Notes: generated from the letters alone by a model not told the origin. A stretch of 64,000 bases of DNA from a virus (IMGVR_UViG_3300006056_000027:32001-96000), one strand, 5' to 3'. Counted from the first letter of the stretch, positions 30,986 to 64,000 are shown. A program made the numbers and translations.

Positions 30986-31756
30986 ATGTCAGAACAATCT
31001 AATCACACAATACTTCCTTACAAAGAAAGGCTTGAGAAATTCAAACTTAAGCAAGAACGTAAGAATAAAAGGGAAGCTCTTAAACTGCTTCCTAAACGTC
31101 CTCGTGGTCGTCCTAAAAAAGAAAAGCCTCCTAAGACTCCTAAGCCTCCAAGAGTTTATCCTCCTAAGAAGCAAAGAAAAGATGGATGCATAATGATATC
31201 TCCCATTTTAAATATTGGCCAGTTTAATAGACTGATCTATAAGACGGTTGATATTATGATGTTTGATAGAGATAAGACTGCTGCGGTAATATGGAATGCT
31301 TATAAGGATTATGAGTATTTGCTACGAAGAGAATTGACTGGATATCAGGACGATACCTTTCATGACATCTTGGTAACTATTAACTATTACCACGACCAAA
31401 ATATTCGTGATCGACTTCATATCGACTGGATAGAAGTATTAGGTATTACTATATGTAAGTGGCTTATAGAGGTTGAGACAAGTTATAAAACTAAAGGCCC
31501 AGGACGTACTGGGTCTAGCTTATATAATTTCTTTCTTCATGCTTTTGCCAGAATATTTCAAAAGTCTTATATAGATTACTGTAGGCTTATGTACAAGGAA
31601 TATGTTCCTCGACTATCTTATGCTCAACGATATGAGTATTTAGACGTAGATGTCGATGAGATTCCTAGTCTTACTAATCCAGCTATATTTGATAATGAGC
31701 TTTTCTATCATATACAAAAACGAATGGAGCCGTTAGGCCCCATTGTTTGCAGTTAG
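30986..31756 (+). CDS. AT-hook-containing putative DNA-binding protein
   Basis: KRPRGRPKK (31094-31120) within a Lys/Pro-rich N-terminus. Confidence 0.6.
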   Translation: MSEQSNHTILPYKERLEKFKLKQERKNKREALKLLPKRPRGRPKKEKPPKTPKPPRVYPPKKQRKDGCIMISPILNIGQFNRLIYKTVDIMMFDRDKTAAVIWNAYKDYEYLLRRELTGYQDDTFHDILVTINYYHDQNIRDRLHIDWIEVLGITICKWLIEVETSYKTKGPGRTGSSLYNFFLHAFARIFQKSYIDYCRLMYKEYVPRLSYAQRYEYLDVDVDEIPSLTNPAIFDNELFYHIQKRMEPLGPIVCS

Positions 31757-49460: not shown

Positions 49461-52400
49461 TTAAATACCAGACTTGCCAGCAGATGTTATTGATACAGTG
49501 TTTTTTGCTTCTAAGGCATTATTTAGTTGGTACAGATTTCCGCCAGATAATATTTGTCCAACAACATTATCTCTTGCTGTTCTAATTGCGTCCATATTTG
49601 TCTCATAGTTTTTAAACTTAGAATCTATATAGCTATTCATTTCAAATCCTGAAATACCGCCAAGGTATGGAGATCCATTATTCAGCAATGGAAATAGTCT
49701 AACTGGTTCTCTAGTTTGCTCTATTTCTACAATAGTATCATGAACTGCTATTCCAACAAATGCCACACCAAGCAATAAGAATGAACTAACTGGATTTGTT
49801 AATGCAATTGATCCTATTTGCAGACCAGTTCTTAATACTACTCTAGAGGCTACCTTGCCAACCGTTCCAAAGAATCCACCAGCTTCTATTTTTGTTAGAT
49901 GAATAGCTGCCTCTACAAGACTTCTAGAGACAGCAGGTATTGCTCTAACGAATTTAACTGTAGAGTTTCTAGCGGCATTTGCTAATACTCTTACTGGTCC
50001 TGCGTCTGCTGCTAATGCCTCTGCTGGTAATAATGCACCTTGCACAAAGCTATAAAGCATACGTATAGAGAATGCAGTGAATGCGGCAGGAGCTGCAAAT
50101 TGCATAGTTCTAGCAGTTAAGCTCTTATCTGAATTCATAATATCTCTAAGCTGTCTGGACTGTACTAGTCCAAGCATTGAAGATATTGTAGTCATTTTCT
50201 TATTATCAAAATATCCACTTTGTGTTTCAAGCTTAATCTTGTTAGAGATAAGCGCCCATCCAATACCAAGTTTAGTAAATAGATTTGAGTAGTTATACAT
50301 AGATGCCTCAGTATAAAGACCTGGAGTTATTACTGTTACGTATCCATCATTTTCATTAAAGATATGAGAACATTCTCTAATTTTAATAATACCATTTAAT
50401 CCTCTGAATGAATCTGCAAGATATGCATAGTCACCAGCTTTCATATTTGGATTGCCAATAATTACAATCTTGCCTTGATACATCTTCTCCGCTTGATTTT
50501 TTAATTCAGCAGTACCATATCTGTAAGCTGTAAACTTATGGTCGCAACCATTCATTTCTAACTCCATACTTCTTATAGAGTTATTTTTTAGATTGTCATC
50601 TAGCAGCATATTGTAGTATTTGAATCCAGTACCAGTTCTTAAATCGTCAGCATCTGGATTGTCATCAAAGTATCTAATGTTAATTTTTGTTTTAAATCCA
50701 GAACTTATTTTTAACTGATTAGAAATAATATGATTTTCACTTGTTATTAAATGAAACTCTGCTGCTGGTTTTAAATCTTTCCATCTTAAAGCTTCTACGT
50801 CTTTATCAACTATTTGATATGCTGTTGGCTGATTTGCCTTGTATAGATAAACTGGAGGATCTCTAAATATGAAAAGCTGTTCCTTGATTCCGAAGAATAA
50901 AGAAGCTCTTTCTTTATAATTCATAACATTCATCCAAGTTCCTGGATGTCTATAATTCATTTCCTTAACTACTTCCCAAACTGTAGAATTGAAAATAGGG
51001 AAGTTGACTAAAATGCCTCTATCCATTGATACTACCGCACTAACTCTATCTCTCCAGCTTCCGTCTAATGAGAAGTGGTTATCTACTGCTTCAATAGAAG
51101 GTGAGTAAATGTTTGTAAACACTTCACTATTAGTGTCCCACCAAACTCCAAACAAGAAGTCGTTCGATGCTTCGCCTCTATCGGTTCCGCCAGTTGTTCC
51201 GTTAAGATTGGATTTTGAATTAGCCCCTCTTAGGATTGATCTAGCATAAGGATTTCTAGAGTTAACAACATAGTATGTTTGTCCAAAGTGATAGATTTCT
51301 TCCGATCTTAATATTTCATTTAGAGTGCCACTGGTAGAAGCATTTAGAATACCAGATGCTTTACTAATACCTTCTTGGTTGTGAGTAACAGCAATAAGCT
51401 CTCTTCCGTATCCCTCTGCAACAATCTCTAATAATGTTTCACCTTCTACTTCTGTAATCTCTCCGTTGAATACTGTTTCAAGTTCATTAGGATCATTCGA
51501 ATACCCAATTCTTACATGCAATCTTGTCCCTGCTGTAAGTCTAACCTTACCAATCTTATCTCTGTAATCTGCATTGCTATTAAGTTTTGCATAGTCAAAT
51601 TTTCCTTCAAAGTTCTTTGCTATAGCAGCAGCATCGGTATAGATGGCTCCTGGATTAGCTACGGTAAATGCCATAACAGCTACTGGATTATCATTGTCAG
51701 CAGTTTGAATCCTTACATCGGATATACCGAATACTTCATATAGATTTGTATCTCTGTTAGGAATAAAAGAAATTCGAGCATACTTATCATCTCTGAGTCC
51801 TTCTACCATGTATATTTTAATAGTAGGCACAGCCATATCCAATCCTGTAGACATGTAGTTGCCAGTTCTTAATGCCCTATATTGAGCTTGATGAGCCTCA
51901 TTGAATAGATTAATTCCAGATGTTTCCATTCCTTTAAAGGTAAACTTTCTATCTGTCGTTAAGAATCCAGCAGGCTTTCTTATGTCTGGATTTTTAGCTA
52001 GCTCAATTCCGTCTACCACAACTCCACCGTTATCAATAACTGCTTGTGACTTAGTAGGGATATCATCAAATCCAACTCCATTAGGTAACTTGATTGAGTC
52101 TATAGTTGTCAATGAAGGATTACGATTGTTGTTTATGTTTTCTTCTGGGGCTTGCGATCCAGAATATAAACCTATCTTATCTCGTTGAGCTAGAATGTTT
52201 CCTTGGTTATAGAACTTAGCTTTCTCTGGAACCTTTTTAGCAAATACTGGTTCTAGTTCTGCAAGGCCACTACGAAGCATTTCATAGTTAAAGTCTACTC
52301 CGTTAGAGTCAATGATATTGGCAACATCCCTTGCACCTGAATCGTTTAGTGCTGGATACTTATAAACCTTAATTGGATACTTAGCGTTATCAAATAATTG

Positions 52401-55400
52401 TTGCAATCTCATTCTAGCTTCTATGCCAAACTTGCCAGGTTTTCCTGAGTAGCTTATTTGCTTTTGATCTAAAGGATCTCTCTTTAAGGTTTCAGGAGTA
52501 TCTACACCAAACACCCTTACAGTTAATCTTCCGTAGTTATTAATCTTATTATTAACTTCTGTAAGAAGACTTACATTAATAATATTCTGAGTCATTGATA
52601 CAGTGTCACCGTCGGTAATTGATGCACCCTTTCTTAGAATGGTTGCATATAATTGAGCGTCTGGTGCTGGCTTAACTCCCTTTGTTACTGCTGGATATTT
52701 TGAACCAAGCTTATCTGATGTAACTTTACCATGTGCTGGCGGTGGAACATCTGCATCAGATAAGCTAGATATCGCTGCTGGCAATCCAGTTTTTCTTGTA
52801 AATAGCGCAGACCATCCTTCAACAAAATTTCTATACGATATTCTGTTGTTGATATAATTTTGTTCTTTAGATAATCTTTTGTCTCTTCCTTTGATCGGAT
52901 TATTTGCTGCCATCATTGTTCTAAGAGTTAGTTTGCCGAACTTGATAGAAGGGTCCGCAATTGTTTCTCTTAGTGCAATATTATTATATCCCTTTAATAT
53001 TTTTGGCCATGCATAACCTTGTTGGTGCGTCATGTACAAATTAAATGTTGTTAATGGAAGTCTATTATCTGCCAGAGCCTTCATTACAAAGCTATACCAA
53101 AAATTCATAGCTGCATATGTGTTTAACTTAACATCTGCATATTGAGAAGGGGATGCGCCTATAGCTTTCAATTTATCATCACTAACTTGAAATAATCCTT
53201 TGTATAGACCGTTAACTGGATTAATTAATGTTGGATCTAAAGTTCCCCCTGTTTCTATCTTAGCCATTGCTATAGCCATCTCTGGTGTTATAAGTGGTTT
53301 GCTTCCAATTGCCTTTGCGTTTAAGAAGTTGTACGAATTAACGGCAGCAATAATTTGCTCCACAACTGTTTGCTGTTTACCAGATAAGGCTAATTGGGCT
53401 CCTACGGATACAGCTCCAAGGATTTGTTGCGTAGCGTTATTTGCGCCTTCAGTTAAGGCTTTAGATCTTACAACTAAAGAATCTATATATCCGTCTGTCA
53501 TGTTTTCCATGTTGACAGAAGATTTAAGTATGTCTTTTGTAGACTTATCCGCAAACTGATACGCAGCATTAAATGACGATGCGTCCACATATATGTTTTG
53601 ATGAATAAAAAAGAACGGAGAAAATCTTTTACCGTCACCTTCTCCAAGATAAGACATTTTCTTTGCAGAATTTAATTGTCCTTTTGCTGCAACTAATGAG
53701 CTAAATATTCCTAGGTCTTGAATTGCTTCTGCATCAATCTCTTTAATCTCTGTTTTAATAATGGATTGTTGCAATGAATCCAATATTTTTGCTGCAACGT
53801 TTCCATACTGTTGTTGCTTTTGATCTTTTGAATAATTCTGTAAGTTTAAAAATCTAGTAACAACATTGTCCATAGTATGAATTAGGGTTTGATATTCATC
53901 ATGTCTCTCATCTACCTTTTTCTCTTCTACTAATTTTGCAATGTAATCGTACAGCTTAATACTTTTTCTTAAATCATCTCCATAAACCTTAGAGAACGTA
54001 GCTGGTTCTTTGCCATGTACTCTTTCATAATAAATCTCAGCACCAACAAACGCCTTCATTAGGATAGCTTCTATGCTGGCGTCCGAATCTAAGAATGATT
54101 TAACTTGAGTGGATAGAGCATTAATATATGTTTTTGTTTTATTTAGTATTGGCTTTAATGTAGGATGACTTTCTAATTGCGCATTTGCAACAGCCTTTGC
54201 CCTTGCTTCAACTTCTGCAATATAGTTGCTTCCCGTTTTTAACAGCTTATCTGCTACGTCTTTATTACCATTTAACACCTTACCTTCTGGAGTAACAAAC
54301 TGATAAGAATGATGTTCCTTTTCTAAGAAAGCTTCTGTAACTGACTTGATAACTTTAATCATAGTTAAAACATCGAAGTCGTAATCCTTAACGCCAGCAG
54401 GTTTAAGTTTATTCTTGCCGATAAGTTTGGTTAGATCAGATTCAACAAATGATAGGCTAGCAATTTGAAGGCCTTGATCTTCTGCTGATTCAAATGATGT
54501 TTCTGAATCAAGAACAAAGTAATGAGAGTCCGCCAACAAAGTTAGAAGATTTCTTATACGCAATGACTTGAATGGAAGTATCTTATTCGTAGCAACAACC
54601 TGAAGTCTTTCTGCTTCTCTAAGCATGTTGGTTAATATTTCATATGGCTTAGGTGCGTCATCGTTGTATGACAGGTTTGAGTTGTTGATAGACAGGTCAA
54701 TCTTTAATTGCGCTGGTGACTTACCAAGATATTGCACAAATGGAAAGTCGTACATTTGCATTGTTTGAATAGCAATCGTATTGCGCTTAGTAATGCTTAC
54801 AGATCTAACTTCATATGCTGAGTGTCCACTAATCTCATTGATTCCATCCAAAATATTAATATCTTGATAGACAAGCCAGAAGTTTCCAGAAGCATTTTCT
54901 ATATCTGTCGCTGCATCGTAATATGTGTTAACAAATGTAAGCTCTTTAAAGTCTTGATCTGTAAATCCAGAACTGAAAACGTTATTTTCTAAGATTTCTT
55001 TGGGCTTGTCATCAAACTGAGGAGATGCTTGCATCATTAATGGTCTACCAAATGTAAGTGAGGTAGTGTTGAATTTAGCCATTAATGTATTGAATTTCTT
55101 AGTACAGTTTTTATTATCAGCAGCAAAGTAGTCTGCAAACACATTTGATTCTTCTAATGAGTCTACTGTTTTTAATACGAAATCCTTCAACTCGATTGGA
55201 GCATTCTTAGCTCTTGGAGTTTTACTTGCTTCTTTATGCTCATCGTAGGCTAGGAAAGACCATGATTTGACATATGGTATATGACTAAAATAATACATAT
55301 CAAATGTTAAAAAGATAACCTTCTTCACGTTTGAGTCTATTTTCATAGTCCATTCTTTTATAGCAAATGCAGTATACTCATTTGTTTTGGTTCCTATAGG

Positions 55401-55679
55401 CGTTATAAATTGATTCAATCTATTTGATTTAATCCAAACGAATGGATACTTTCTTAATTCAACAGAAAGCTTAATTAGATTATTCACATCAATTTGACTA
55501 TTAAGATCAAAGGCTATGGTAACGCTATACGTCGCCACAGCACTGTTTGATGAATATGCATATGTAGAATTTTCTCTAATGAACGTACTGACATCAACAA
55601 ACTTCTGATTGAATGCTTGGATATCTGTTGGGTTCACTCTAAGAGTAATATCATTAATAATGAATTGTTCTGTTGACAT
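49461..55679 (-). CDS. Giant baseplate hub protein with lytic transglycosylase and SNase-like nuclease domains
   Basis: SLT: AKIETGG, GLFQ, YMTHQQG. SNase: DGDT, VRVFGVDTPE, NYEMLRSGLA, AQRDKIGLY. Hub: VRIGYS..ETVFNGEITEV and IIGNPNMKAGD..L....GIIKIRECSHIF..GYVT. Confidence 0.8.
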   Translation of the reverse strand: MSTEQFIINDITLRVNPTDIQAFNQKFVDVSTFIRENSTYAYSSNSAVATYSVTIAFDLNSQIDVNNLIKLSVELRKYPFVWIKSNRLNQFITPIGTKTNEYTAFAIKEWTMKIDSNVKKVIFLTFDMYYFSHIPYVKSWSFLAYDEHKEASKTPRAKNAPIELKDFVLKTVDSLEESNVFADYFAADNKNCTKKFNTLMAKFNTTSLTFGRPLMMQASPQFDDKPKEILENNVFSSGFTDQDFKELTFVNTYYDAATDIENASGNFWLVYQDINILDGINEISGHSAYEVRSVSITKRNTIAIQTMQMYDFPFVQYLGKSPAQLKIDLSINNSNLSYNDDAPKPYEILTNMLREAERLQVVATNKILPFKSLRIRNLLTLLADSHYFVLDSETSFESAEDQGLQIASLSFVESDLTKLIGKNKLKPAGVKDYDFDVLTMIKVIKSVTEAFLEKEHHSYQFVTPEGKVLNGNKDVADKLLKTGSNYIAEVEARAKAVANAQLESHPTLKPILNKTKTYINALSTQVKSFLDSDASIEAILMKAFVGAEIYYERVHGKEPATFSKVYGDDLRKSIKLYDYIAKLVEEKKVDERHDEYQTLIHTMDNVVTRFLNLQNYSKDQKQQQYGNVAAKILDSLQQSIIKTEIKEIDAEAIQDLGIFSSLVAAKGQLNSAKKMSYLGEGDGKRFSPFFFIHQNIYVDASSFNAAYQFADKSTKDILKSSVNMENMTDGYIDSLVVRSKALTEGANNATQQILGAVSVGAQLALSGKQQTVVEQIIAAVNSYNFLNAKAIGSKPLITPEMAIAMAKIETGGTLDPTLINPVNGLYKGLFQVSDDKLKAIGASPSQYADVKLNTYAAMNFWYSFVMKALADNRLPLTTFNLYMTHQQGYAWPKILKGYNNIALRETIADPSIKFGKLTLRTMMAANNPIKGRDKRLSKEQNYINNRISYRNFVEGWSALFTRKTGLPAAISSLSDADVPPPAHGKVTSDKLGSKYPAVTKGVKPAPDAQLYATILRKGASITDGDTVSMTQNIINVSLLTEVNNKINNYGRLTVRVFGVDTPETLKRDPLDQKQISYSGKPGKFGIEARMRLQQLFDNAKYPIKVYKYPALNDSGARDVANIIDSNGVDFNYEMLRSGLAELEPVFAKKVPEKAKFYNQGNILAQRDKIGLYSGSQAPEENINNNRNPSLTTIDSIKLPNGVGFDDIPTKSQAVIDNGGVVVDGIELAKNPDIRKPAGFLTTDRKFTFKGMETSGINLFNEAHQAQYRALRTGNYMSTGLDMAVPTIKIYMVEGLRDDKYARISFIPNRDTNLYEVFGISDVRIQTADNDNPVAVMAFTVANPGAIYTDAAAIAKNFEGKFDYAKLNSNADYRDKIGKVRLTAGTRLHVRIGYSNDPNELETVFNGEITEVEGETLLEIVAEGYGRELIAVTHNQEGISKASGILNASTSGTLNEILRSEEIYHFGQTYYVVNSRNPYARSILRGANSKSNLNGTTGGTDRGEASNDFLFGVWWDTNSEVFTNIYSPSIEAVDNHFSLDGSWRDRVSAVVSMDRGILVNFPIFNSTVWEVVKEMNYRHPGTWMNVMNYKERASLFFGIKEQLFIFRDPPVYLYKANQPTAYQIVDKDVEALRWKDLKPAAEFHLITSENHIISNQLKISSGFKTKINIRYFDDNPDADDLRTGTGFKYYNMLLDDNLKNNSIRSMELEMNGCDHKFTAYRYGTAELKNQAEKMYQGKIVIIGNPNMKAGDYAYLADSFRGLNGIIKIRECSHIFNENDGYVTVITPGLYTEASMYNYSNLFTKLGIGWALISNKIKLETQSGYFDNKKMTTISSMLGLVQSRQLRDIMNSDKSLTARTMQFAAPAAFTAFSIRMLYSFVQGALLPAEALAADAGPVRVLANAARNSTVKFVRAIPAVSRSLVEAAIHLTKIEAGGFFGTVGKVASRVVLRTGLQIGSIALTNPVSSFLLLGVAFVGIAVHDTIVEIEQTREPVRLFPLLNNGSPYLGGISGFEMNSYIDSKFKNYETNMDAIRTARDNVVGQILSGGNLYQLNNALEAKNTVSITSAGKSGI

Positions 55680-55680
55680 A

Positions 55681-58600
55681 TTAGTATCTTTGTTCTCGTT
55701 TATCTCTTATGTTGACATTGGTTCTACTACCACCTTTGTCACCAAATAATGTTCTTTGTAGATTTGAAACTTTTTGACCGTCTCGTTTTGATTGGCCGTT
55801 GATATTAGTTGTTTGTCCGTATCCAGACTTTTTATAGGTAGGTGCATTCTCGGATTGCAATGGACCAAGTATACCATCGCTTGTTGAGAATGGTACAGCT
55901 TCTTTTGTCATCTCTGGTGTTTCAGCTCCTACGAACATAGCCGTTGCAGCAAGTGCAGCAGCACCAACACTTAGTGGCATTCTATTTTTATACATATTTC
56001 TTTTAGCGGCATGAAATATATCAGATCCTCTTTGGCCAATACTCTTAATTCTAGCTTCAGTATTAGCTGCTAATTCTTCAGACTCTATCATGTTTGCATT
56101 TGCCATAGTTTGCAAATACTCAATCATCTTATCGAATGAATGCACATCTCTAGCGTCTTTAATTCTTGCACCAGATCTTTCTATTTGATGAGCAAACTCT
56201 ACAGTTCCTTCGATTACGTCAGAAATACCTTGATTGTAATTCTTCATAATATTGTCAGCTAAATCAATATGTCCTTCCGCTCTCTTACCTTCTGCAAATG
56301 ATTTTACTTTATTTCCAAGCAAGTTTTCTAGAGCCTGTTTAGTTTGTTCTCTATACTCTCTTGTATTTCCACCTAGTAATTTCTTATAGGCACTTTGTAA
56401 TGTTTCAATTTCTGAAACACCCATAGTTCTTCTTATATCTTCATTTGATCTATGAGCTGACTTAATTAGACTTTCTGTAATGTTATGGATTACTGTTCTT
56501 CCAGTAATACTTCTAGACATTCTTTCTTCTGCAGATAATGTAGTATCACTATCAAGCCTATGAATTAACATATCCGTCATATTCATTGCAAGGTAAGTTG
56601 CTGGTGCCGCTAAGATCTTTCTTTGTCTTCCTTTAAATGAAGATGTAGCTTGGTCTGCGTAATATGCTGCGGCTGAATTGTAATCGCCTAAGAATGATTT
56701 AGGATTGATTGCGCCATTCTTTTGTTTAGATGCCATAGCATCCATTAAATGTTGTGACTCATCAAACGCTTTATTTTGAGTGGCCATCATAGCTTCAAAC
56801 ATTTTCTTATGTTCTGGATTCTTAAAGTCTATACCTGTCACCCTAATAGTGTCATAGTCATAGTCGGTAAATTGGCCTTTTTCAAAGATGTTTTTATTGC
56901 TGTTATGAGCAAACCCAACTTCGTCCTTGCCTAATTGTGCTGAAGGATCAAAGTATGCATCACCACTAATAATAGAGAAGGCGCCTTGTGATGGTTCACG
57001 AGTCCACATATTTCTAAGCGGCCTTATGTTGCCCTTCTTATCTTTAATCATGGCCTGCTGAATGCCACCATGACCGACATCTTCCCAATGAATGCTCTTG
57101 CTATCAATACCCATTCTTTCTGCAAGGCCGTATATTGTTGCTTTAGAATAAGCAGCGCCAGCATTCTTCGCTGCACCACTTTCCATGAATGATGCAAAGT
57201 TTCCGCCAACACTTCTAGCTCTCATAAATGAGCTACCATCTACAGTTGACTTAGAAGCAGCCTTAGCAATATTGCCATCCCCTTTAAGAAGTCTAACGTG
57301 CATCTCTTCAACTTGTGAAAGTACATCCATATATCTAGCAGCATATGCCTTCTTATGAGCTGGTTCAGCATTGATATATTCTAAGTCTGCCTTGATTAAA
57401 TCTCTTCTCTTTTTGTCTAGCTTACTAAGTATGTCTGCTTCGCCAACTTGTAAATGTCCAGTTCTATTAGTAGTTAAAAAGGATATTGGCACACTTTTAA
57501 TTTTGCCACCCTTCTTGCCATATTCTTCTGGAGTTGACAGGTTGTAGGACAGGAAGTCTCCTTGAGCGGTTAACGCGCCTTTAAGTGCATTCTTTCTATT
57601 CTCTGGAATAAAATCAAATGAATCAACTATTTGATTACCATGCGTAGCTTTAATATTGTCAGGTATTTCCTTATCAATAGCAGCCATAGACTGAATCATT
57701 CTTAATTCAAATGCTGCATCAGCACTAGGTCTAGTAATTACACCAAGCATGTCATCAGTCCATCCAGAAGCTTTTAATTGCTTTCTTTCTAGCCATGACA
57801 TTGAACCAACGTTTCCGATACCATGCAATCCTTCTCCTAGGTCAGCAACAACTCTGGTTTGTAATGCTGCTACATCTGACATTGACTTAACATTTCTATC
57901 AATTACACTACGTAATGCATTTTCAGCAACATCTCTATTCTCAACTAATAGTCTTCCGCCGCGAAGATTATCTAAATCCTGTAAGCCTTTTGTATCATTG
58001 TTTTTAGATGCAAGGTTTCTTAGCGTTACAAACAGATCAGAATTGCCTTTAAAGTCCATCTGAGACTGAATGAATATAGATGCCTTGGTTTTAGATAGCT
58101 CGTCGCTTTTCGCATCCTGGAGTATCTTAACGGCATTCCCAAATAGTCCTTTCTCATTAAGCTTGTTGGCATCTGTAAGAGTTTGTATAAGCTTGTTGTG
58201 GTCATATAGTGCATCAGCTCCAGAGTCTTTTGCTCCAAGCATAATATCGCCAGCTATCCCAAATCTATTTACAAGATGCTTTGCAGCGCCATCTATATTT
58301 CCAGATGTCATTAATGAATTGATTTGTAGTTTTGCAACATCAGCATTTGCTGTATAGCCTTTTAGTGCGTATCTTTTTCTTCTTAATTCTAAGACATAAT
58401 CTTTGAAGCCTTTAGACTTTTCATCAATTGAATATCCAGAAGCACTTGAGTCGAATGAAATAATACCTGACCTTCTTAGGTTCTCCATTGTTGATATGGC
58501 TTTAAACTGGCTATCTGTAACTGATGTGTAACCAGCTTTAGAAGATGTACCAAATAGTTTTAACCATCTTTGTATTGATGCGTCAAATGATGCTTCTACG

Positions 58601-60456
58601 TTTATTTTTAATGCAGAGTTGTTTGTCCAAGCAGATTTAATTATTCCACCTGTGTAAACATTTCCAATCCTTGATTCCTTGCCAAGCTTATCAAATCCTA
58701 CGACGTCATTTGCTCCAAGTTTAATATTCTCAAGCATTGCCTGTCTCTTGGTTAAGTCACTTTCCGACATAGCTTTTGCAAGTTCTTCATGGATAATTGG
58801 ATAAAGACCATTCTCTCCTTTTGCTATTTCTAAAGAGATGTGTTGCTTCTCTGACAGTCTAGCAAGAGATTCTTCGTTAATAAGACCAGCACCATCTGCA
58901 ATACTTACATGTCCTCCAAATAATTTAGAGATATAACTACTCATTCCTGAATCAATATCTACTCTTGAAACTATCTTTTCATTACCAGCACCGAGTCTGG
59001 CCCCAGGCTCTTCAATGTATCCTCTGCCAGTTACGACATCTGTAGCACGTTCCATCGTCGGTACAAAGGCATCATCCAAGGCTAGGTTCTTAAAGTCCAA
59101 TGCAGAGAAGTATCCAACAGTGTTTAGTCCTTGTCCAGCTAATGGATTATACCCTTCGTGCGCGAACTCATTGCCTAGTCTTCTTAATAGGTTGCTCATC
59201 TCTGATGCGCTACCGTTCTCAGAAATAGACTTAATTTTGTTTAATTTCATTAAGCCGTCGTCTTTAATTTCAATAGCGTCTTCAAAGTATACGGATGCAC
59301 CAGATAGCCTTCTCATATATTCTGAAAACTTACTATCAGGCATCGAAGTAAGATCTCCTAGTTTGTTATAGGCAAGTGGAGAGTCTGCAGCAACATACTG
59401 CATTTGCTTCATTGTTTTTTCATACCAGTCCGCTATATTAACCTTGCCATCTTTCTTTTCCATGAAGCCTATAATGTCTTCTGGAGCCATCTTCGTCTTA
59501 ATAAGTTCAGATATATTATCTGATCCCATAATGTCTTTTAGTAGTGGTTCATTAAAATATGCTTGGCCATTGGCGTAGAGTCTTCCAAATGGATTAATTG
59601 GCTTTGATGCGTATAGCGTATCTCCAATTTTTGCAAAGCGAGCACTACCACCTTTGTTTTGAACTGTTAGTGGAATCTCATGCGCTACACCATTTTGTTG
59701 AGCTATTAATGTGCTTCCTTTCACAACAAAATCTGTACCATGAAGGCCATGCAATAACAGTCCTGCTTTTCTAGTAGCTTCTTCTTTGCCATATCCTAAT
59801 TGATTAATAAAATGACTAGACAGTATATTGAGACTATTTGCCTTATTTGAGGTTGAGTTTATATGTACTGTTTTAAGTGTTTCTTGGAACTTATTATCTG
59901 CGGCATCTACTAATTGGATTTTAGTATCTAACTTTCTAGCATTACTAATTGCCGATATAGCTTTTTCTTCTGTGTCAGATCCCATAATAAACTTAGAAAG
60001 ATTATCTAGGTAATCATTAGAATTAGATCCAAGCTCTGCTGGTAGCGTAACACCTCTAGCGCTAGCAAGTGTCAATACGTTGTGTTGCAATATTTCTATT
60101 CTTGATTTAAGCCTATCAACGTGATTAATAGCTCTATCTAGCTTCTTGGCATTGTTTCTAGTTTGTTTCCATCCACCTATTGCAACTACAAGATTCTCAG
60201 CTTTCTTTAACTTGGAATTAAGTCCTGTAACCTTATCTGATAAGTTTTGACGATCAAATTGTTTAGACATAAGCATAGAGCTGTCATATTTGAATACAGC
60301 ATTCTTTTTAGAAAAAGGAGATACCACTTTTGAGTAAGAAGAATAATACGCAGTAGCAGCTCCTATACCGCTACCTAATATTCCAGCGATAGGATGATCA
60401 AGTGGATCTTGTGATAGGCCACCTATAGCAGCCCCTGTTAATAATTTTAATGACAT
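55681..60456 (-). CDS. Putative single-chain two-barrel (beta-beta' fused) virion RNA polymerase
   Basis: Colinear motifs ADGAGLIN, KLFGTSSKAG, GDIMLG, GSMSWLERKQLKASG, LLKGDG..VDGS, TREPSQ and TDYDYD (56851-56865). Confidence 0.7.
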   Translation of the reverse strand: MSLKLLTGAAIGGLSQDPLDHPIAGILGSGIGAATAYYSSYSKVVSPFSKKNAVFKYDSSMLMSKQFDRQNLSDKVTGLNSKLKKAENLVVAIGGWKQTRNNAKKLDRAINHVDRLKSRIEILQHNVLTLASARGVTLPAELGSNSNDYLDNLSKFIMGSDTEEKAISAISNARKLDTKIQLVDAADNKFQETLKTVHINSTSNKANSLNILSSHFINQLGYGKEEATRKAGLLLHGLHGTDFVVKGSTLIAQQNGVAHEIPLTVQNKGGSARFAKIGDTLYASKPINPFGRLYANGQAYFNEPLLKDIMGSDNISELIKTKMAPEDIIGFMEKKDGKVNIADWYEKTMKQMQYVAADSPLAYNKLGDLTSMPDSKFSEYMRRLSGASVYFEDAIEIKDDGLMKLNKIKSISENGSASEMSNLLRRLGNEFAHEGYNPLAGQGLNTVGYFSALDFKNLALDDAFVPTMERATDVVTGRGYIEEPGARLGAGNEKIVSRVDIDSGMSSYISKLFGGHVSIADGAGLINEESLARLSEKQHISLEIAKGENGLYPIIHEELAKAMSESDLTKRQAMLENIKLGANDVVGFDKLGKESRIGNVYTGGIIKSAWTNNSALKINVEASFDASIQRWLKLFGTSSKAGYTSVTDSQFKAISTMENLRRSGIISFDSSASGYSIDEKSKGFKDYVLELRRKRYALKGYTANADVAKLQINSLMTSGNIDGAAKHLVNRFGIAGDIMLGAKDSGADALYDHNKLIQTLTDANKLNEKGLFGNAVKILQDAKSDELSKTKASIFIQSQMDFKGNSDLFVTLRNLASKNNDTKGLQDLDNLRGGRLLVENRDVAENALRSVIDRNVKSMSDVAALQTRVVADLGEGLHGIGNVGSMSWLERKQLKASGWTDDMLGVITRPSADAAFELRMIQSMAAIDKEIPDNIKATHGNQIVDSFDFIPENRKNALKGALTAQGDFLSYNLSTPEEYGKKGGKIKSVPISFLTTNRTGHLQVGEADILSKLDKKRRDLIKADLEYINAEPAHKKAYAARYMDVLSQVEEMHVRLLKGDGNIAKAASKSTVDGSSFMRARSVGGNFASFMESGAAKNAGAAYSKATIYGLAERMGIDSKSIHWEDVGHGGIQQAMIKDKKGNIRPLRNMWTREPSQGAFSIISGDAYFDPSAQLGKDEVGFAHNSNKNIFEKGQFTDYDYDTIRVTGIDFKNPEHKKMFEAMMATQNKAFDESQHLMDAMASKQKNGAINPKSFLGDYNSAAAYYADQATSSFKGRQRKILAAPATYLAMNMTDMLIHRLDSDTTLSAEERMSRSITGRTVIHNITESLIKSAHRSNEDIRRTMGVSEIETLQSAYKKLLGGNTREYREQTKQALENLLGNKVKSFAEGKRAEGHIDLADNIMKNYNQGISDVIEGTVEFAHQIERSGARIKDARDVHSFDKMIEYLQTMANANMIESEELAANTEARIKSIGQRGSDIFHAAKRNMYKNRMPLSVGAAALAATAMFVGAETPEMTKEAVPFSTSDGILGPLQSENAPTYKKSGYGQTTNINGQSKRDGQKVSNLQRTLFGDKGGSRTNVNIRDKREQRY

Positions 60457-63400
60457 TATGCACCAATGTTAAAGTTTAAATTGTCTGTCTTGCTTATATG
60501 GAATTGTACGCTATCAACGTCTACTCCACGTTTATATAGTTCACTTTTAATACTAGCGGAAGATCTTTTTTCTTCCTTGATGGAATTTTTGATCTGCTCG
60601 ATTTGTCCAGTAACTTGTTTTTCTTGTTGAACTATTGATAATCTTCTTAGTCTATTCTCATCGCTATCCCAAAAGCCATACTCTCTTACATCTTCTTTGC
60701 CAATTGATAATGTTTGTAGCTTGATATCTTTCATATCTATCCTAGGATCCCATCCAGCAAAGTTTCTATCTGGAACGCCAGTTGTTCTTTTTACATAACT
60801 TTCTACTTCTTTATCTTGTACAAATTCAGAGAATGAAGATGATTCTTTTTCATTACTTCTTTTGTATTGTTCGTATAGGCCTCTATTATCTGATATTAAG
60901 TCTGACTCTTCATTGCTAACTATATTCATAACAGCAGCAGTTTGAGCTTCTGGACTTGAGGCTCCAGCGATAGCGTCTCTACGTTTCCACAACTTGCTAT
61001 ATAAATTTGCTATATCTGTAGGAACCATATCAACTATTTGAGATCTTTCTTCTGAACTAGTAGCTCCTGAGAATGCTGCGAAGTACGCTTTCTGTCTATC
61101 TGGTAATGCTATGTAAGCTCTGGTCACTTCCATATTCTCATCTAAGCCAGTAGTCAATGCCCCAGTAACGGTTGCTTGATATTTCTTTTTATACTCATGT
61201 GCGTTGCCATCTCCGCTTGCCACAGACTCTTTGTATAGATTTCTATACTTCATATACTCTAATCTGTCAAAATATGTATCTATAGCATTTCTTTCTTGTG
61301 CTTCTTCTGGCATATCATTTGACGGATCTAGCTTATTAGCAAACGGTTTAAGGAAATGATCGTATGGCTTTGTCCACATACCGACATCAGAACCTTCTAT
61401 TTGTGTTGCTATATAATCTTCTGTAGCTGTTCTTTGATGTATAAACTTAGCTGCTGGTCTAAAGAATGTTAATGTTTCTGTTGGAGCTTCAGCAAGACGT
61501 GATGAGACGCTCCACAATGACGATAGAGCCGTGTCAACGAATCCAGCATCTTGCATATCCTCTTTGGTTAAAGGTGTGGCAAAACGCTTCTGTATGGATC
61601 TCTGAGACTCTTGATCCTTGATTGTGGAATACATTCCTTGTTCATAGTCTGTTAATTGACCCTGAACAGATCTTGCTTCCATAATATCTTTGTATTGATA
61701 GTATTCGTCACTACCTAAAGCGACATCTGAAAGGATTTTATACTTGAAGATATCTGGATAATCTTTTGGATCAATACCTTTAAGTTCTGGGAATAATTCA
61801 GAATAGCCTTCGCCAGGAAGTCTATAGTATCCTCTATCTACTTTTGAATAAGGGTCGCCAATAGAGAAGTCTTGCCAGTAATTATTAGGATCATGAGGTA
61901 GCCATTCTGGCATTAAGTTTCTTAAAGGGTTTGCAGAATCAACAATAGATCCTGAGTTTGTAGGAATAAATCTTCTAAGTGATTCACCTATTGGACCCAT
62001 ACCGCCGAGATTTCTTTCTAATAAGTCTCTAGCTATATTATTGCTTTCACCAGATCTAGCTAGTTGTAATCCAGAATCACCAACTCCAGTATGGGTATAG
62101 TCGTTCATCAACGACACAGCCCAACCTTTTAAGCCAGCAAAGTCTGTTAAAGCATTATAAGATCCATCTGCAAGTTCTCTATTCAGATTCATCTTTGCAT
62201 TTTCAGGGGCTAACATTTTGCCTTCCTGAACTAAAGATGCTTCCTCGTCTGTCACTTTCTGCTTAAGAGATACGCCCTGTTCTGAATCTAAAGATCCGCC
62301 ATCAACATATTCACTTAGTCTTTCATTAACTAAGTCAGGCTTAATTACTCTTCCAATTGTTCCTTCAAATATTTTACCGAATACACCAGCATGAGATACT
62401 GACATTCCCCAAACTGGATATGGAGATCTTTCTTGGTTAAGTTCTTCGTATCTGTATGGGTTTCTTAAATAATCAAATGGATGTAGGAATGGATTAAGAT
62501 CGCTCTTTGTTTCTTGATCGCCGTACTTACCAACTGTTTCGGCATCGTTCATTAACTGTGAATACCAAGACTTTGTAAAATACTTAATCTTACCGCCTTC
62601 ATATTCAGTACCACCAGATGTCCAGAATCTTGTTGATCTGATTGCTACATCTTCTTCACCAGAATATTCTTTTCTTAATTGCTCTGAAGACTCACCTACT
62701 AGTGCTCCTGGAAGGAATGGTAATGCTGGAATTGCACCGACTATAGCACCTAATGCTGCGAGTTTCTTAACCTTGGTCAGCTTAACTCCGTCTGCTGGAT
62801 CTCTAAGTAAAACCTTATTAACTAGAGAAGACTCTGTTTCTCTAGCAAAGATCTTTTCCGTTTCTGCAAAGCCTCTAATCGCTGTTGAGGCAAGTCTTGT
62901 TGAATAACCTACAGTACCACCAAACATGGCACCAGCTAATGGAAAACCTGCTAATGCAATTACGCTAGTAGACCCAGGCGCATAATATTCTTGTCTTTCT
63001 TTATATCCCTGAAAGTTATCAGACCATGCAGATGCAACACCAACTCTAGCAGTTGTATATCCAGTTGCTAATCCAGGAAGTATCCCTTTATCAAATGGAG
63101 AAGACTGATCTGCTACTGATTTAACTACTTCATTAAGAATGCTTAAACCAGCTCCAGCCATCAATGATGCTTTTGCTATATTGCCAGCACTCATTGCAAA
63201 TGATCTAGGAACAGACTTTGTATAATCTCCTTTAGTGCCTAAGCCTAAGCTAAGACTATCTCTAACGCCATGAAGGAAATTGTACTTCTGAGGAAGACCA
63301 GTTTTATCTATTAGTTCTGCAAAGAAGTCTAATGGCTTATCAAATATCTTAAAGCCAGGCTCTATAGATAATCTACCAAAAGCCCTAGACCATCCAAGCA

Positions 63401-63998
63401 TCATGTCACTTTGACTCTTACCAGCTATAACACCTAATTTTCCATTCTCTGATAAAGCAGCGTTATAGAATCTAGAAGCATCTTCTACTCCCATAACATT
63501 TCTAAACTTTTCATATACTCTGTTTAGGAATGGAGAGCTTTTTTCACCAAGACCTTTATCTACATCTGGAGACAGGGAAACGATTCTTGCATGCTCAAGT
63601 AAGGTTGATGACATATCTGCCGAGTATAATTTACCAGATTGATATACGGCACCACTTCTAAATACTTCATCTATTACTTGTGGATGTAGATTATTACCCT
63701 TCTCTGCAAATAGTTTTCTAAAATATTCTTCATCTAGAAACAATTGCGTTGCAGTTATGTTAATTGGAACTGTGTCTTTTGGAAGATTAGTTACCGATAA
63801 CAGACTTGATGTATGAAAGGTTCTTAGGATTTTAAATGGAGATAGTTCTTCAGCACCTTTAGCGAATGCAAGGCTTAGGTCACCAAGAGTAACCTTTCTT
63901 TTAATAGCAAGATCTGACCATGCCGTATCATTATATCTAATATAATCATTTAAGATGTTTAACTTAAACAACCTAGACGCAGCAGACTGACCTATATC
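60456..63998 (-). CDS. Large virion/ejection-type protein (5'-truncated by window edge)
   Basis: Frame stays open to the window end; several Gly/Ala-rich hydrophobic segments; TAATG-coupled to the RNAP-like gene. Confidence 0.65.
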   Translation of the reverse strand, partial: DIGQSAASRLFKLNILNDYIRYNDTAWSDLAIKRKVTLGDLSLAFAKGAEELSPFKILRTFHTSSLLSVTNLPKDTVPINITATQLFLDEEYFRKLFAEKGNNLHPQVIDEVFRSGAVYQSGKLYSADMSSTLLEHARIVSLSPDVDKGLGEKSSPFLNRVYEKFRNVMGVEDASRFYNAALSENGKLGVIAGKSQSDMMLGWSRAFGRLSIEPGFKIFDKPLDFFAELIDKTGLPQKYNFLHGVRDSLSLGLGTKGDYTKSVPRSFAMSAGNIAKASLMAGAGLSILNEVVKSVADQSSPFDKGILPGLATGYTTARVGVASAWSDNFQGYKERQEYYAPGSTSVIALAGFPLAGAMFGGTVGYSTRLASTAIRGFAETEKIFARETESSLVNKVLLRDPADGVKLTKVKKLAALGAIVGAIPALPFLPGALVGESSEQLRKEYSGEEDVAIRSTRFWTSGGTEYEGGKIKYFTKSWYSQLMNDAETVGKYGDQETKSDLNPFLHPFDYLRNPYRYEELNQERSPYPVWGMSVSHAGVFGKIFEGTIGRVIKPDLVNERLSEYVDGGSLDSEQGVSLKQKVTDEEASLVQEGKMLAPENAKMNLNRELADGSYNALTDFAGLKGWAVSLMNDYTHTGVGDSGLQLARSGESNNIARDLLERNLGGMGPIGESLRRFIPTNSGSIVDSANPLRNLMPEWLPHDPNNYWQDFSIGDPYSKVDRGYYRLPGEGYSELFPELKGIDPKDYPDIFKYKILSDVALGSDEYYQYKDIMEARSVQGQLTDYEQGMYSTIKDQESQRSIQKRFATPLTKEDMQDAGFVDTALSSLWSVSSRLAEAPTETLTFFRPAAKFIHQRTATEDYIATQIEGSDVGMWTKPYDHFLKPFANKLDPSNDMPEEAQERNAIDTYFDRLEYMKYRNLYKESVASGDGNAHEYKKKYQATVTGALTTGLDENMEVTRAYIALPDRQKAYFAAFSGATSSEERSQIVDMVPTDIANLYSKLWKRRDAIAGASSPEAQTAAVMNIVSNEESDLISDNRGLYEQYKRSNEKESSSFSEFVQDKEVESYVKRTTGVPDRNFAGWDPRIDMKDIKLQTLSIGKEDVREYGFWDSDENRLRRLSIVQQEKQVTGQIEQIKNSIKEEKRSSASIKSELYKRGVDVDSVQFHISKTDNLNFNIGA

Positions 63999-64000
63999 TG

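Follow-up and report, generated by a model that had tools for sequence, protein, structure and literature searches.

The window considered here is a stretch of 64,000 nucleotides (nt), corresponding to bases 32001-96000 of a 120,647-bp IMG/VR virus record (IMGVR_UViG_3300006056_000027) that is estimated to be 66% complete and derives from a large, uncultured phage of wastewater. Minus-strand genes follow in the order large terminase, portal, major capsid protein, tail sheath, two tube-like proteins, two small open reading frames (ORFs), a 1228-amino acid (aa) protein, the 1591-aa protein that is the subject of this study, a 2072-aa hub-like protein, baseplate wedge and fibres. The gene in question (55681..60456, minus strand; stop codon at 55681-55683) is an ATG-initiated ORF and the middle one of three giant co-oriented ORFs, with the 1228-aa protein encoded upstream and the 2072-aa protein downstream. 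An original prediction, made from the sequence alone, had read its product as a fused beta-beta' RNA polymerase (RNAP) that is ejected from the virion. The ORF was borne out as described, and all peptides quoted in that prediction are found in the translation, among them ADGAG at 520, IGNVYTGG at 597, KLFGTSSKAG at 633-642, GDIMLG at 736, GSMSW at 884, LDKKRR at 1013, KGDGNI at 1058, TREPSQ at 1152 and DYDYD at 1198-1202. Conservation across a large family and a structural model now point to a single-chain two-barrel RNAP, and the position of the gene suggests that this enzyme is carried in the phage particle.

Catalytic signature and predicted fold

A word-based search retrieved four full-length relatives with 33-42% identity, and searching 1.84 billion representative proteins with a profile extended the family to 81 relatives, mostly of 1450-2400 aa, which represent clusters at 50% identity. 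Conservation was counted in an alignment of 75 long members (FFT-NS-2), and a separate alignment of 35 rows was used for modelling. Most of the 75 aligned members are ~17-25% identical to the target, the closest ones 35-44%. Nevertheless, the three aspartates of DYDYD are retained almost throughout (D1198 in 74/75, D1200 and D1202 each in 75/75), together with R1153 and P1155 (both 75/75) and the intervening E1154 (70/75). The same applies to the lysines of the beta-like barrel (K633 75/75, K640 70/75), to S887 (75/75), W888 (64/75) and G898 (72/75) of the element closing this barrel, and to K1065 (73/75), D521 (72/75) and G522 (74/75). Further downstream, R1279 and K1280 (97%) and T1287 (94%) are conserved in a bridge-helix-like segment, and E1328 and K1332 (100%) and H1335 (92%) in a trigger-loop-like segment. 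Since these catalytic positions stay fixed across 75 members while the rest drifts to ~20% identity, the core motifs exceed what chance would produce.

While the Asp triad of the predicted active site is thus kept in the homologs, the tyrosine, which had been taken as a lineage-specific replacement of the conserved glycine, is not special: the position that separates the second Asp from the third varies within the family (Gln in 24, Ala in 17, Tyr in 9 and Gly in 8 members at position 1201), and the family motif reads D[FY]DxD. Accepted viral RNAPs can also do without this glycine, as shown by DVDID, DNDKD and DQDPD (PMC10770324 Supplementary Data 4).

For comparison with a bacterial enzyme, we read the motifs of E. 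coli beta (FEDS 812, K1065/K1073, GEME 1271) and beta' (DLYRR 267, KQGRFR 334, NRAPT 424, DFDGD 460, ARKG 779, RTFH 933) from rpoB and rpoC in the genome record. Eleven motifs of the target are collinear with them, in the order D521, K633/K640, GSMSW 884, LDKKRR 1013, KGDGNI 1058, REP 1153, DYDYD 1198, R1279-K1280 and K1332..H1335. The bridge-helix-like R1279-K1280 and the trigger-loop-like K1332..H1335 are additions to the original prediction. Its motif order stands and the lysine pair lies at the nucleotides it had given (Table 1), but its pairing of GDIMLG with VDIVLN is unsupported, because GDIMLG is part of a helical insertion of low conservation and follows K633 at a distance of 103 residues, whereas VDIVLN lies 29 residues past K1065 of beta. 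The spacing of K633/K640 resembles that of K1065/K1073, and the motifs of the beta'-like barrel are 94 and 46 residues apart in the target in comparison to 90 and 36 in beta'. R1153-E-P1155, followed after 42 residues by D1198-Y-D-Y-D1202, also conforms to the published RNAP filter [RK]xPx{20,100}DxDxD (PMC10770324 Supplementary Data 4). Finally, the catalytic set of two-barrel RNAPs consists of three aspartates contributed by one barrel and a pair of basic residues contributed by the second (PMC7824862), and the invariant residues of the target correspond to this set.

The template-free AlphaFold2 (AF2) model of residues 470-1400, based on the 35-row alignment (model residue + 469 = protein residue), reached a predicted local distance difference test score (pLDDT) of 84.2 and a predicted template modelling score (pTM) of 0.83. 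It contains two double-psi beta-barrels (DPBBs), the beta-like one preceding the beta'-like one, and thereby matches the architecture of two-barrel RNAPs. K633 is part of a strand, and K640 immediately precedes the following one. Next comes a 180-residue helical insertion of low conservation and differing length among homologs; GSMSW closes this first barrel. In the second barrel the Asp loop is placed just before the last strand, and behind this barrel a 42-residue helix is followed by a helix-loop-helix with K1332 and H1335.

Structure comparison led to the same enzyme class. In a Foldseek search against the PDB, the top 50 matches were all two-barrel RNAPs (probabilities 0.54-0.99), comprising QDE-1, Thermus and E. 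coli beta/beta', AR9, poxvirus and Pol II and III enzymes. VIA-align, an independent all-against-representatives search followed by a second-look realignment, ranked QDE-1 first (Z 11.5 over 309 aa, model 6-889; second look Z 12.0 over 340 aa, including both barrels), followed by P74-26 gp62, the non-virion RNAP of the P23-45 group (Z 10.0, 283 aa, model 1-889), and maize RDR2 (Z 9.9, 325 aa, model 1-889; second look Z 11.7). The largest RNAP subunits (Pol I, Pol II, vaccinia, archaeal, mycobacterial) scored Z 8.9-9.6 (283-352 aa, model ~453-931), beta' fragments of AR9 and phiKZ Z 8.3-9.1 and P23-45 gp96 Z 7.9 (266 aa, model 5-912). In the second look, E. coli beta' reached Z 11.1 over 368 aa (model 456-931 against beta' 25-1251), 533 of the 992 re-aligned chains had a Z of at least 8, and the best 50 were all RNA polymerase chains. 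The single-chain enzymes QDE-1, RDR2, gp62 and gp96 align across model residues 1-900, and isolated DPBB domains (CDC48-N and designed DPBB proteins) align to model residues 605-760 with Z 7-8.8. At the level of chain alignments, the match to beta' extends to model residue 931, behind the bridge-helix-like and trigger-loop-like segments.

Taken together, the model, the matches to RNAPs and the invariant Asp triad support the reading as a fused beta-beta' RNAP. The predicted core very probably has a two-barrel RNA polymerase fold, and from the conservation of its residues it is likely to be catalytically active. According to the model, the beta-like barrel of the core (~470-1400) would provide K633 and K640 and the beta'-like barrel R-x-P together with D1198, D1200 and D1202, and the bridge-helix-like helix and the trigger-loop-like helix-loop-helix would complete it. 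The protein founds a family of its own, and by its modelled structure it groups with the single-chain clade.

Table 1. Features of the 1591-aa ORF and its two giant neighbours (nt positions counted from the first base of the window)
Feature	Position	Strand	Remarks
Gly/Ala-rich hydrophobic N-terminal motif, aa 1-45	60322..60456	-	G8, G12, G32 kept in 86-94% of 75 homologs
N-terminal region, aa 46-469	59050..60321	-	outside modelled segment
Two-barrel RNA polymerase core as modelled, aa 470-1400	56257..59049	-	AF2, Foldseek, VIA
Lysine pair K633, K640 of beta-like barrel (DPBB-B)	58537..58560	-	in and after strand 631-635; conservation
Helical insertion within DPBB-B, aa 682-862	57871..58413	-	model helices 213-393; hidden Markov model matches split there
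DPBB-B closing element GSMSWxE..QL..SG, aa 884-898	57763..57807	-	occupies place of beta GEMEVWALEAYG
Beta'-like barrel (DPBB-A), aa 1070-1210	56827..57249	-	isolated-DPBB alignments, strand pattern
R1153-E-P1155, counterpart of beta' NRAP	56992..57000	-	conservation, published motif filter
Putative metal-binding triad D1198-Y-D1200-Y-D1202	56851..56865	-	loop preceding strand 1203-1209
Bridge-helix-like 42-residue helix, aa 1262-1303	56548..56673	-	compare beta' ARKGLADTALKTA at 779
Trigger-loop-like segment joining two helices	56452..56475	-	compare beta' R933-T-F-H936
Sole strongly hydrophobic segment, aa 1493-1513	55918..55980	-	candidate for anchoring in or inserting into a membrane
Conserved C-terminal tail, aa 1514-1591	55684..55917	-	PEMTKE, QSENA, YKK, terminal RTNxxxRD
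Upstream gene, 1228 aa, homolog of ME3_35	60456..64000 (to 64142 in full record)	-	
Downstream gene for the baseplate-hub-like protein (2072 aa), ME3_37 homolog	49461..55679	-	

Tail-module context and proposed virion packaging

The gene is the second one past the small ORFs at the chaperone position and lies directly before the hub. The stop codon of the upstream gene overlaps its start (TAATG), and the hub-like gene begins 1 nt past its own stop. An identical gene order is present in Acinetobacter phage vB_AbaM_ME3 (ME3_29 to ME3_37, with ME3_36 as a 1603-aa homolog), a cultured phage and the only carrier of a family member among 50,697 phage records. Six IMG/VR contigs (L002-L006 and L015) have the same order, including L015, which was found via a degenerate REPAQGP...D[FY]DxD DNA pattern. 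In the ME3 record, ME3_35 is annotated as homologous to a virion structural protein of Bacillus phage 0305phi8-36 (YP_001429636), and the annotators linked ME3_37 to the hub of the same phage. Between those homologs, 0305phi8-36 carries orf146, which was called the tape measure by position and length, and the neighbouring genes encode virion proteins (PMC2147016).

Occupying the slot of a tape measure would fit with a polymerase-derived but catalytically dead structural tail protein, either a tape measure or a component of the tube lumen or needle, and the protein also changes more quickly than the genes beside it (identity to ME3 of 22-26% versus 29-33%). However, the three Asp, the two Lys, R-x-P, the R-K of the bridge helix and the K/H of the trigger loop are invariant at ~20% overall identity, and catalytic residues that stay fixed amid such drift are what one expects from an enzyme, not from a scaffold. 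We consider a purely structural role improbable. Tape measures are long, mostly helical proteins whose length sets that of the tail; the 931 residues modelled here are predicted to form a globular enzyme and not an extended helix. The family profile did not match the proteins in the tape-measure slot of Bacillus phage WH1 and Moorella phage MTATph1; therefore, those relatives of the tail module are not obviously enzyme carriers.

Gene position and precedent suggest that the protein is an ejected virion RNAP, and we regard packaging and injection as fairly probable by analogy with such precedents. A different possibility is that the active RNAP is not packaged and is merely encoded inside the tail gene block. 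The model has an ordered, clamp-like connector, and the non-virion gp64/gp62 likewise has a clamp; P74-26 gp62 also outscores gp96 (Z 10.0 vs 7.9). On the other hand, the slot between two virion-type genes is kept in 7/7 loci examined, where the stop codon of one gene overlaps or abuts the start codon of the next, and the conserved hydrophobic termini would be left unexplained in a soluble enzyme. In addition, a polymerase whose expression is confined to the late structural genes would be useful mainly when it is packaged and serves the following infection, which is the rationale of the virion RNAPs of N4, phiKZ/AR9, crAss-like phages and P23-45. Hence, a non-packaged enzyme appears rather unlikely.

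Our preferred interpretation, to which we assign a probability of roughly 60%, is a single-chain two-barrel RNAP of an undescribed family that is packaged in the virion, injected and used for early transcription. The gene would be co-transcribed with the late tail genes against which it is tightly packed, and the protein would become a part of the virion's tail or baseplate. Upon contraction of the sheath it would exit with or ahead of the DNA, and the hydrophobic, conserved N- and C-terminal segments may serve as an anchor, either by docking within the tail or by inserting into the membrane; Q16, D17 and P18 of the N-terminal motif are invariant among the close relatives of the target, and the C-terminal tail (aa 1514-1591) is possibly a docking or membrane-proximal element. 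Inside the cell, the enzyme would transcribe the first-entering phage genes from the DNA template without the host polymerase. More tentatively, one may imagine a widespread family of large contractile-tailed phages that keeps a complete cellular-type RNAP in the tail or baseplate, where it would be the first protein to enter the cell, become anchored in the membrane by its hydrophobic ends, start host-independent transcription and at the same time help to draw in the long genome. Such a system would have evolved independently of the Thermus case and of the described RNAP families.

Several observations weigh against the preferred interpretation. The target protein had no match in Pfam, PHROGs, NCBIfam or, by phmmer, the PDB, and the family profile returned only coiled-coil noise from the PDB, with chains of the HA2 and adhesin-stalk type matching non-significantly around aa 50-200 (E 0.2-0.7). 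Comparison of the family with the single gp96 sequence by hhalign was restricted to the Asp loop (21 columns, E 0.054), and for the gp96 and E. coli beta' single sequences only this loop aligned, at non-significant E-values of 0.05-0.12. The Foldseek E-values are weak (3e-3 to 2e-2), and VIA Z values of 8-12 are only moderately over the stated background of the tool. Further points are the ordered inter-barrel connector of ~170 residues in the model and the size of the folded ~100-kDa core, which would not obviously fit the lumen of a tail tube. Besides, no second (non-virion) RNAP is found in the 120-kb record (~66% complete), as judged from the lack of PF05183, PF00623 and any other large ORF with RxP...DxDxD, and an exact 10-mer enrichment scan of the intergenic regions returned only tRNA T-loops and no candidate promoter.

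The failure of all sequence-profile methods to reach significance could mean that the resemblance to RNAPs is spurious and due to chance motifs and a misleading AlphaFold model, and a first AF2 model from 4 sequences was indeed unusable (pLDDT 52.6). Yet the template-free model from 35 sequences, with a pTM of 0.83, matches RNAPs almost without exception and has both barrels in the right order, and the motif conservation does not depend on any model, which leaves a spurious resemblance very improbable. The empty sequence searches also agree with the statement that RNAP families share little outside the DxDxD region (PMC10770324). Where hhalign did align the family, it put the triad on DFDGD of gp96 and E. 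coli beta', a result used for the register only; against E. coli beta it proposed an unrelated weak, non-significant segment, which was discarded. The ESM Atlas held no usable match for the target.

The lack of a promoter motif in the k-mer scan also counts in favour of the alternative that a virion-carried, active two-barrel polymerase has another job, such as RNA-templated synthesis, the production of replication primers or action as a motor pulling in the ~180-kb genome. The best structural matches, QDE-1 and RDR2 (Z 11.7-12.0), are enzymes with dual specificity as RNA-dependent (RdRP) and DNA-dependent RNA polymerases (DdRP), and polymerase-mediated injection was raised as an idea by the authors of the 0305phi8-36 study (PMC2147016). 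In contrast, the gp96, gp64, crAss gp66, phiKZ and AR9 enzymes have all been described as DNA-dependent RNAPs. As the scores of QDE-1, beta' and gp62 are only ~1-2 Z units apart, template preference is not settled by structure scores. We judge such a different job unlikely and favour early transcription from DNA as the role of the enzyme.

Relation to known polymerases

The original prediction named crAss-like phages and YonO as precedents, but the nearest functional one is gp96 of Thermus phage P23-45, given the position of our gene in the tail module between the 1228-aa virion-type protein and the baseplate hub. Residues 327-1124 of gp96 constitute an active two-barrel RNAP, which virions contain as a portion of the tape measure protein and which transcribes the pre-early genes (PMC10770324). 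The same type is found in P74-26, G20c and TSP4, with structures available as PDB 8H2M/8H2N (PMC10770324). Both proteins are encoded where the tail module has its tape-measure region and comprise a single-chain two-barrel core of ~800-900 residues, a catalytic loop of the form D-aromatic-D-x-D-T-[LI]-x-V (DYDYDTIRV in the target, DFDGDTLVV in gp96) and a membrane-type hydrophobic segment, and both are presumed to transcribe the genes that enter the cell first. However, the RNAP of gp96 forms the N-terminus of a 5002-aa tape measure in a siphovirus, whereas the target is a separate 1591-aa gene of a contractile-tailed phage of ~180 kb. There is no detectable sequence homology between the two, the family profile found nothing in the whole P23-45 genome, and the structural score (Z 7.9) lies below that of QDE-1 or beta'. 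Pfam and NCBIfam searches did not reveal the metallopeptidase domain of gp96 in the target, and the short, disordered connector of the "clampless" gp96 contrasts with the ordered one in our model.

In terms of structure, QDE-1/RDR2, polymerases of cellular RNAi, are the best match, as these enzymes also hold both barrels on one chain and in the same order. Phage relatives of this type are YonO and gp99 of 0305phi8-36 (PF05183). The target differs from the QDE-1/YonO type by its tail-module context, by extra N- and C-terminal regions and by the lack of a PF05183 match, which was found neither in the protein nor in the whole record. In 0305phi8-36, orf99 is located on the right arm of the phage, away from the tail genes (PMC2147016).

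Gp66 of phi14:2, a phage of the crAss-like type (PDB 6VR4), is likewise a single-chain two-barrel RNAP, with a DFDxD motif variable in its fourth position and a gene beside those of giant virion proteins, and is packaged in the virion. It differs in its length of 2180 aa and in belonging to podovirus-type phages. The target matches no PHROG family and thus none that would speak for membership in the crAss-like gp66 group; 6VR4 is not among the listed structural matches to our model, which is no evidence against a similarity. The enzymes of the jumbo phages phiKZ and AR9 and the virion RNAP of N4 follow the strategy that we propose for the target, in that they are made late, packaged and injected and allow a start independent of the host enzyme. 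Unlike the single-chain target, the phiKZ/AR9 enzymes are split into multiple subunits, and the N4 enzyme has a T7-like, unrelated right-hand fold. The virion RNAPs of phiKZ/AR9 and N4 are carried in the head and are not known to be encoded in the tail module.

To our knowledge, virion-delivered two-barrel RNAPs have been shown experimentally only in phiKZ/AR9, crAss-like and P23-45-like phages, and we know of only one tail-borne example, which is limited to a handful of Thermus siphoviruses. While a virion two-barrel RNAP of the tail module is thus known from one lineage, the family presented here is distinct from it, much more widespread and found in contractile-tailed phages. It is a separate family in large myoviruses of wastewater and freshwater that has gone undetected by sequence methods and is named in no family library. 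We found no paper describing it, and PMC10770324 was the only one found that links two-barrel RNAPs to tape measures; a survey of jumbo phages names ME3 for a Ter system only (PMC7824862). With ME3 as a cultured member, rifampicin-independent early transcription becomes directly testable, and the same phage gives access to the stowage of a ~100-kDa enzyme and its passage through a contractile tail as well as to the place of the family in RNAP evolution. For annotation, a giant "hypothetical" gene in front of the hub of such phages should not be assumed to encode a passive tape measure.

Environmental distribution, related proteins and neighbouring genes

Sequencing runs from wastewater, freshwater and sludge, contributed by 13 studies between 2017 and 2025, contain near-identical copies of the gene (at least half of the words sampled), and the phage lineage is persistent and widespread. 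The public runs are represented by contigs, and the presence of the gene in contigs of RNA libraries (X8, X19) is no proof of transcription. Four public runs were compared for differences between strains; of the 40 with the best support, 33 leave the amino acid unchanged and 31 affect third codon positions, and the two insertions or deletions observed, of 6 and 3 nt, are both in frame. With variation mostly synonymous and indels in frame, the gene is under purifying selection in nature. The 6- and 3-base deletions, at 57508 and 57518, both stem from one contig of a wastewater metatranscriptome library (run X19) and fall at ~aa 980-983 in the inter-barrel connector.

In BFVD, the RNAP model matches ME3_36, a protein of Siphoviridae sp. 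ctnpt50 labelled "minor tail protein" (E 2e-7) and giant proteins of the Microcystis phages Ma-LMM01 and MaMV-DC (E 5.5e-5 and 3e-3). A second ME3 protein, A0A172Q0S6 with 798 aa, is matched as well (E 2e-3, probability 0.99). ME3_309, an ORF of 798 aa, was considered as its gene and rejected, being without the Asp triad. These model-based matches suggest further unrecognised tail-linked or non-virion RNAP-like proteins. A 256-aa ORF at 30986-31756 (+) contains RxP...DVDVD, which is probably a chance occurrence, and is too small for a two-barrel enzyme.

The target is not a paralog of either giant neighbour. The upstream 1228-aa protein is 33% identical to ME3_35 over the full length, has no family match and contains hydrophobic segments at 28-46, 393-412 and 458-485; possibly this protein is the actual tape measure, or else it is ejected as a second protein. 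The downstream 2072-aa hub-like protein includes a region of lysozyme/endolysin type (phrog_20474, aa 1376-1668) and a hydrophobic segment near the C-terminus (1955-1987). At aa 1053-1173 it also harbours a staphylococcal-nuclease domain (E 8e-9 in Pfam); a nuclease within a baseplate hub is unusual.

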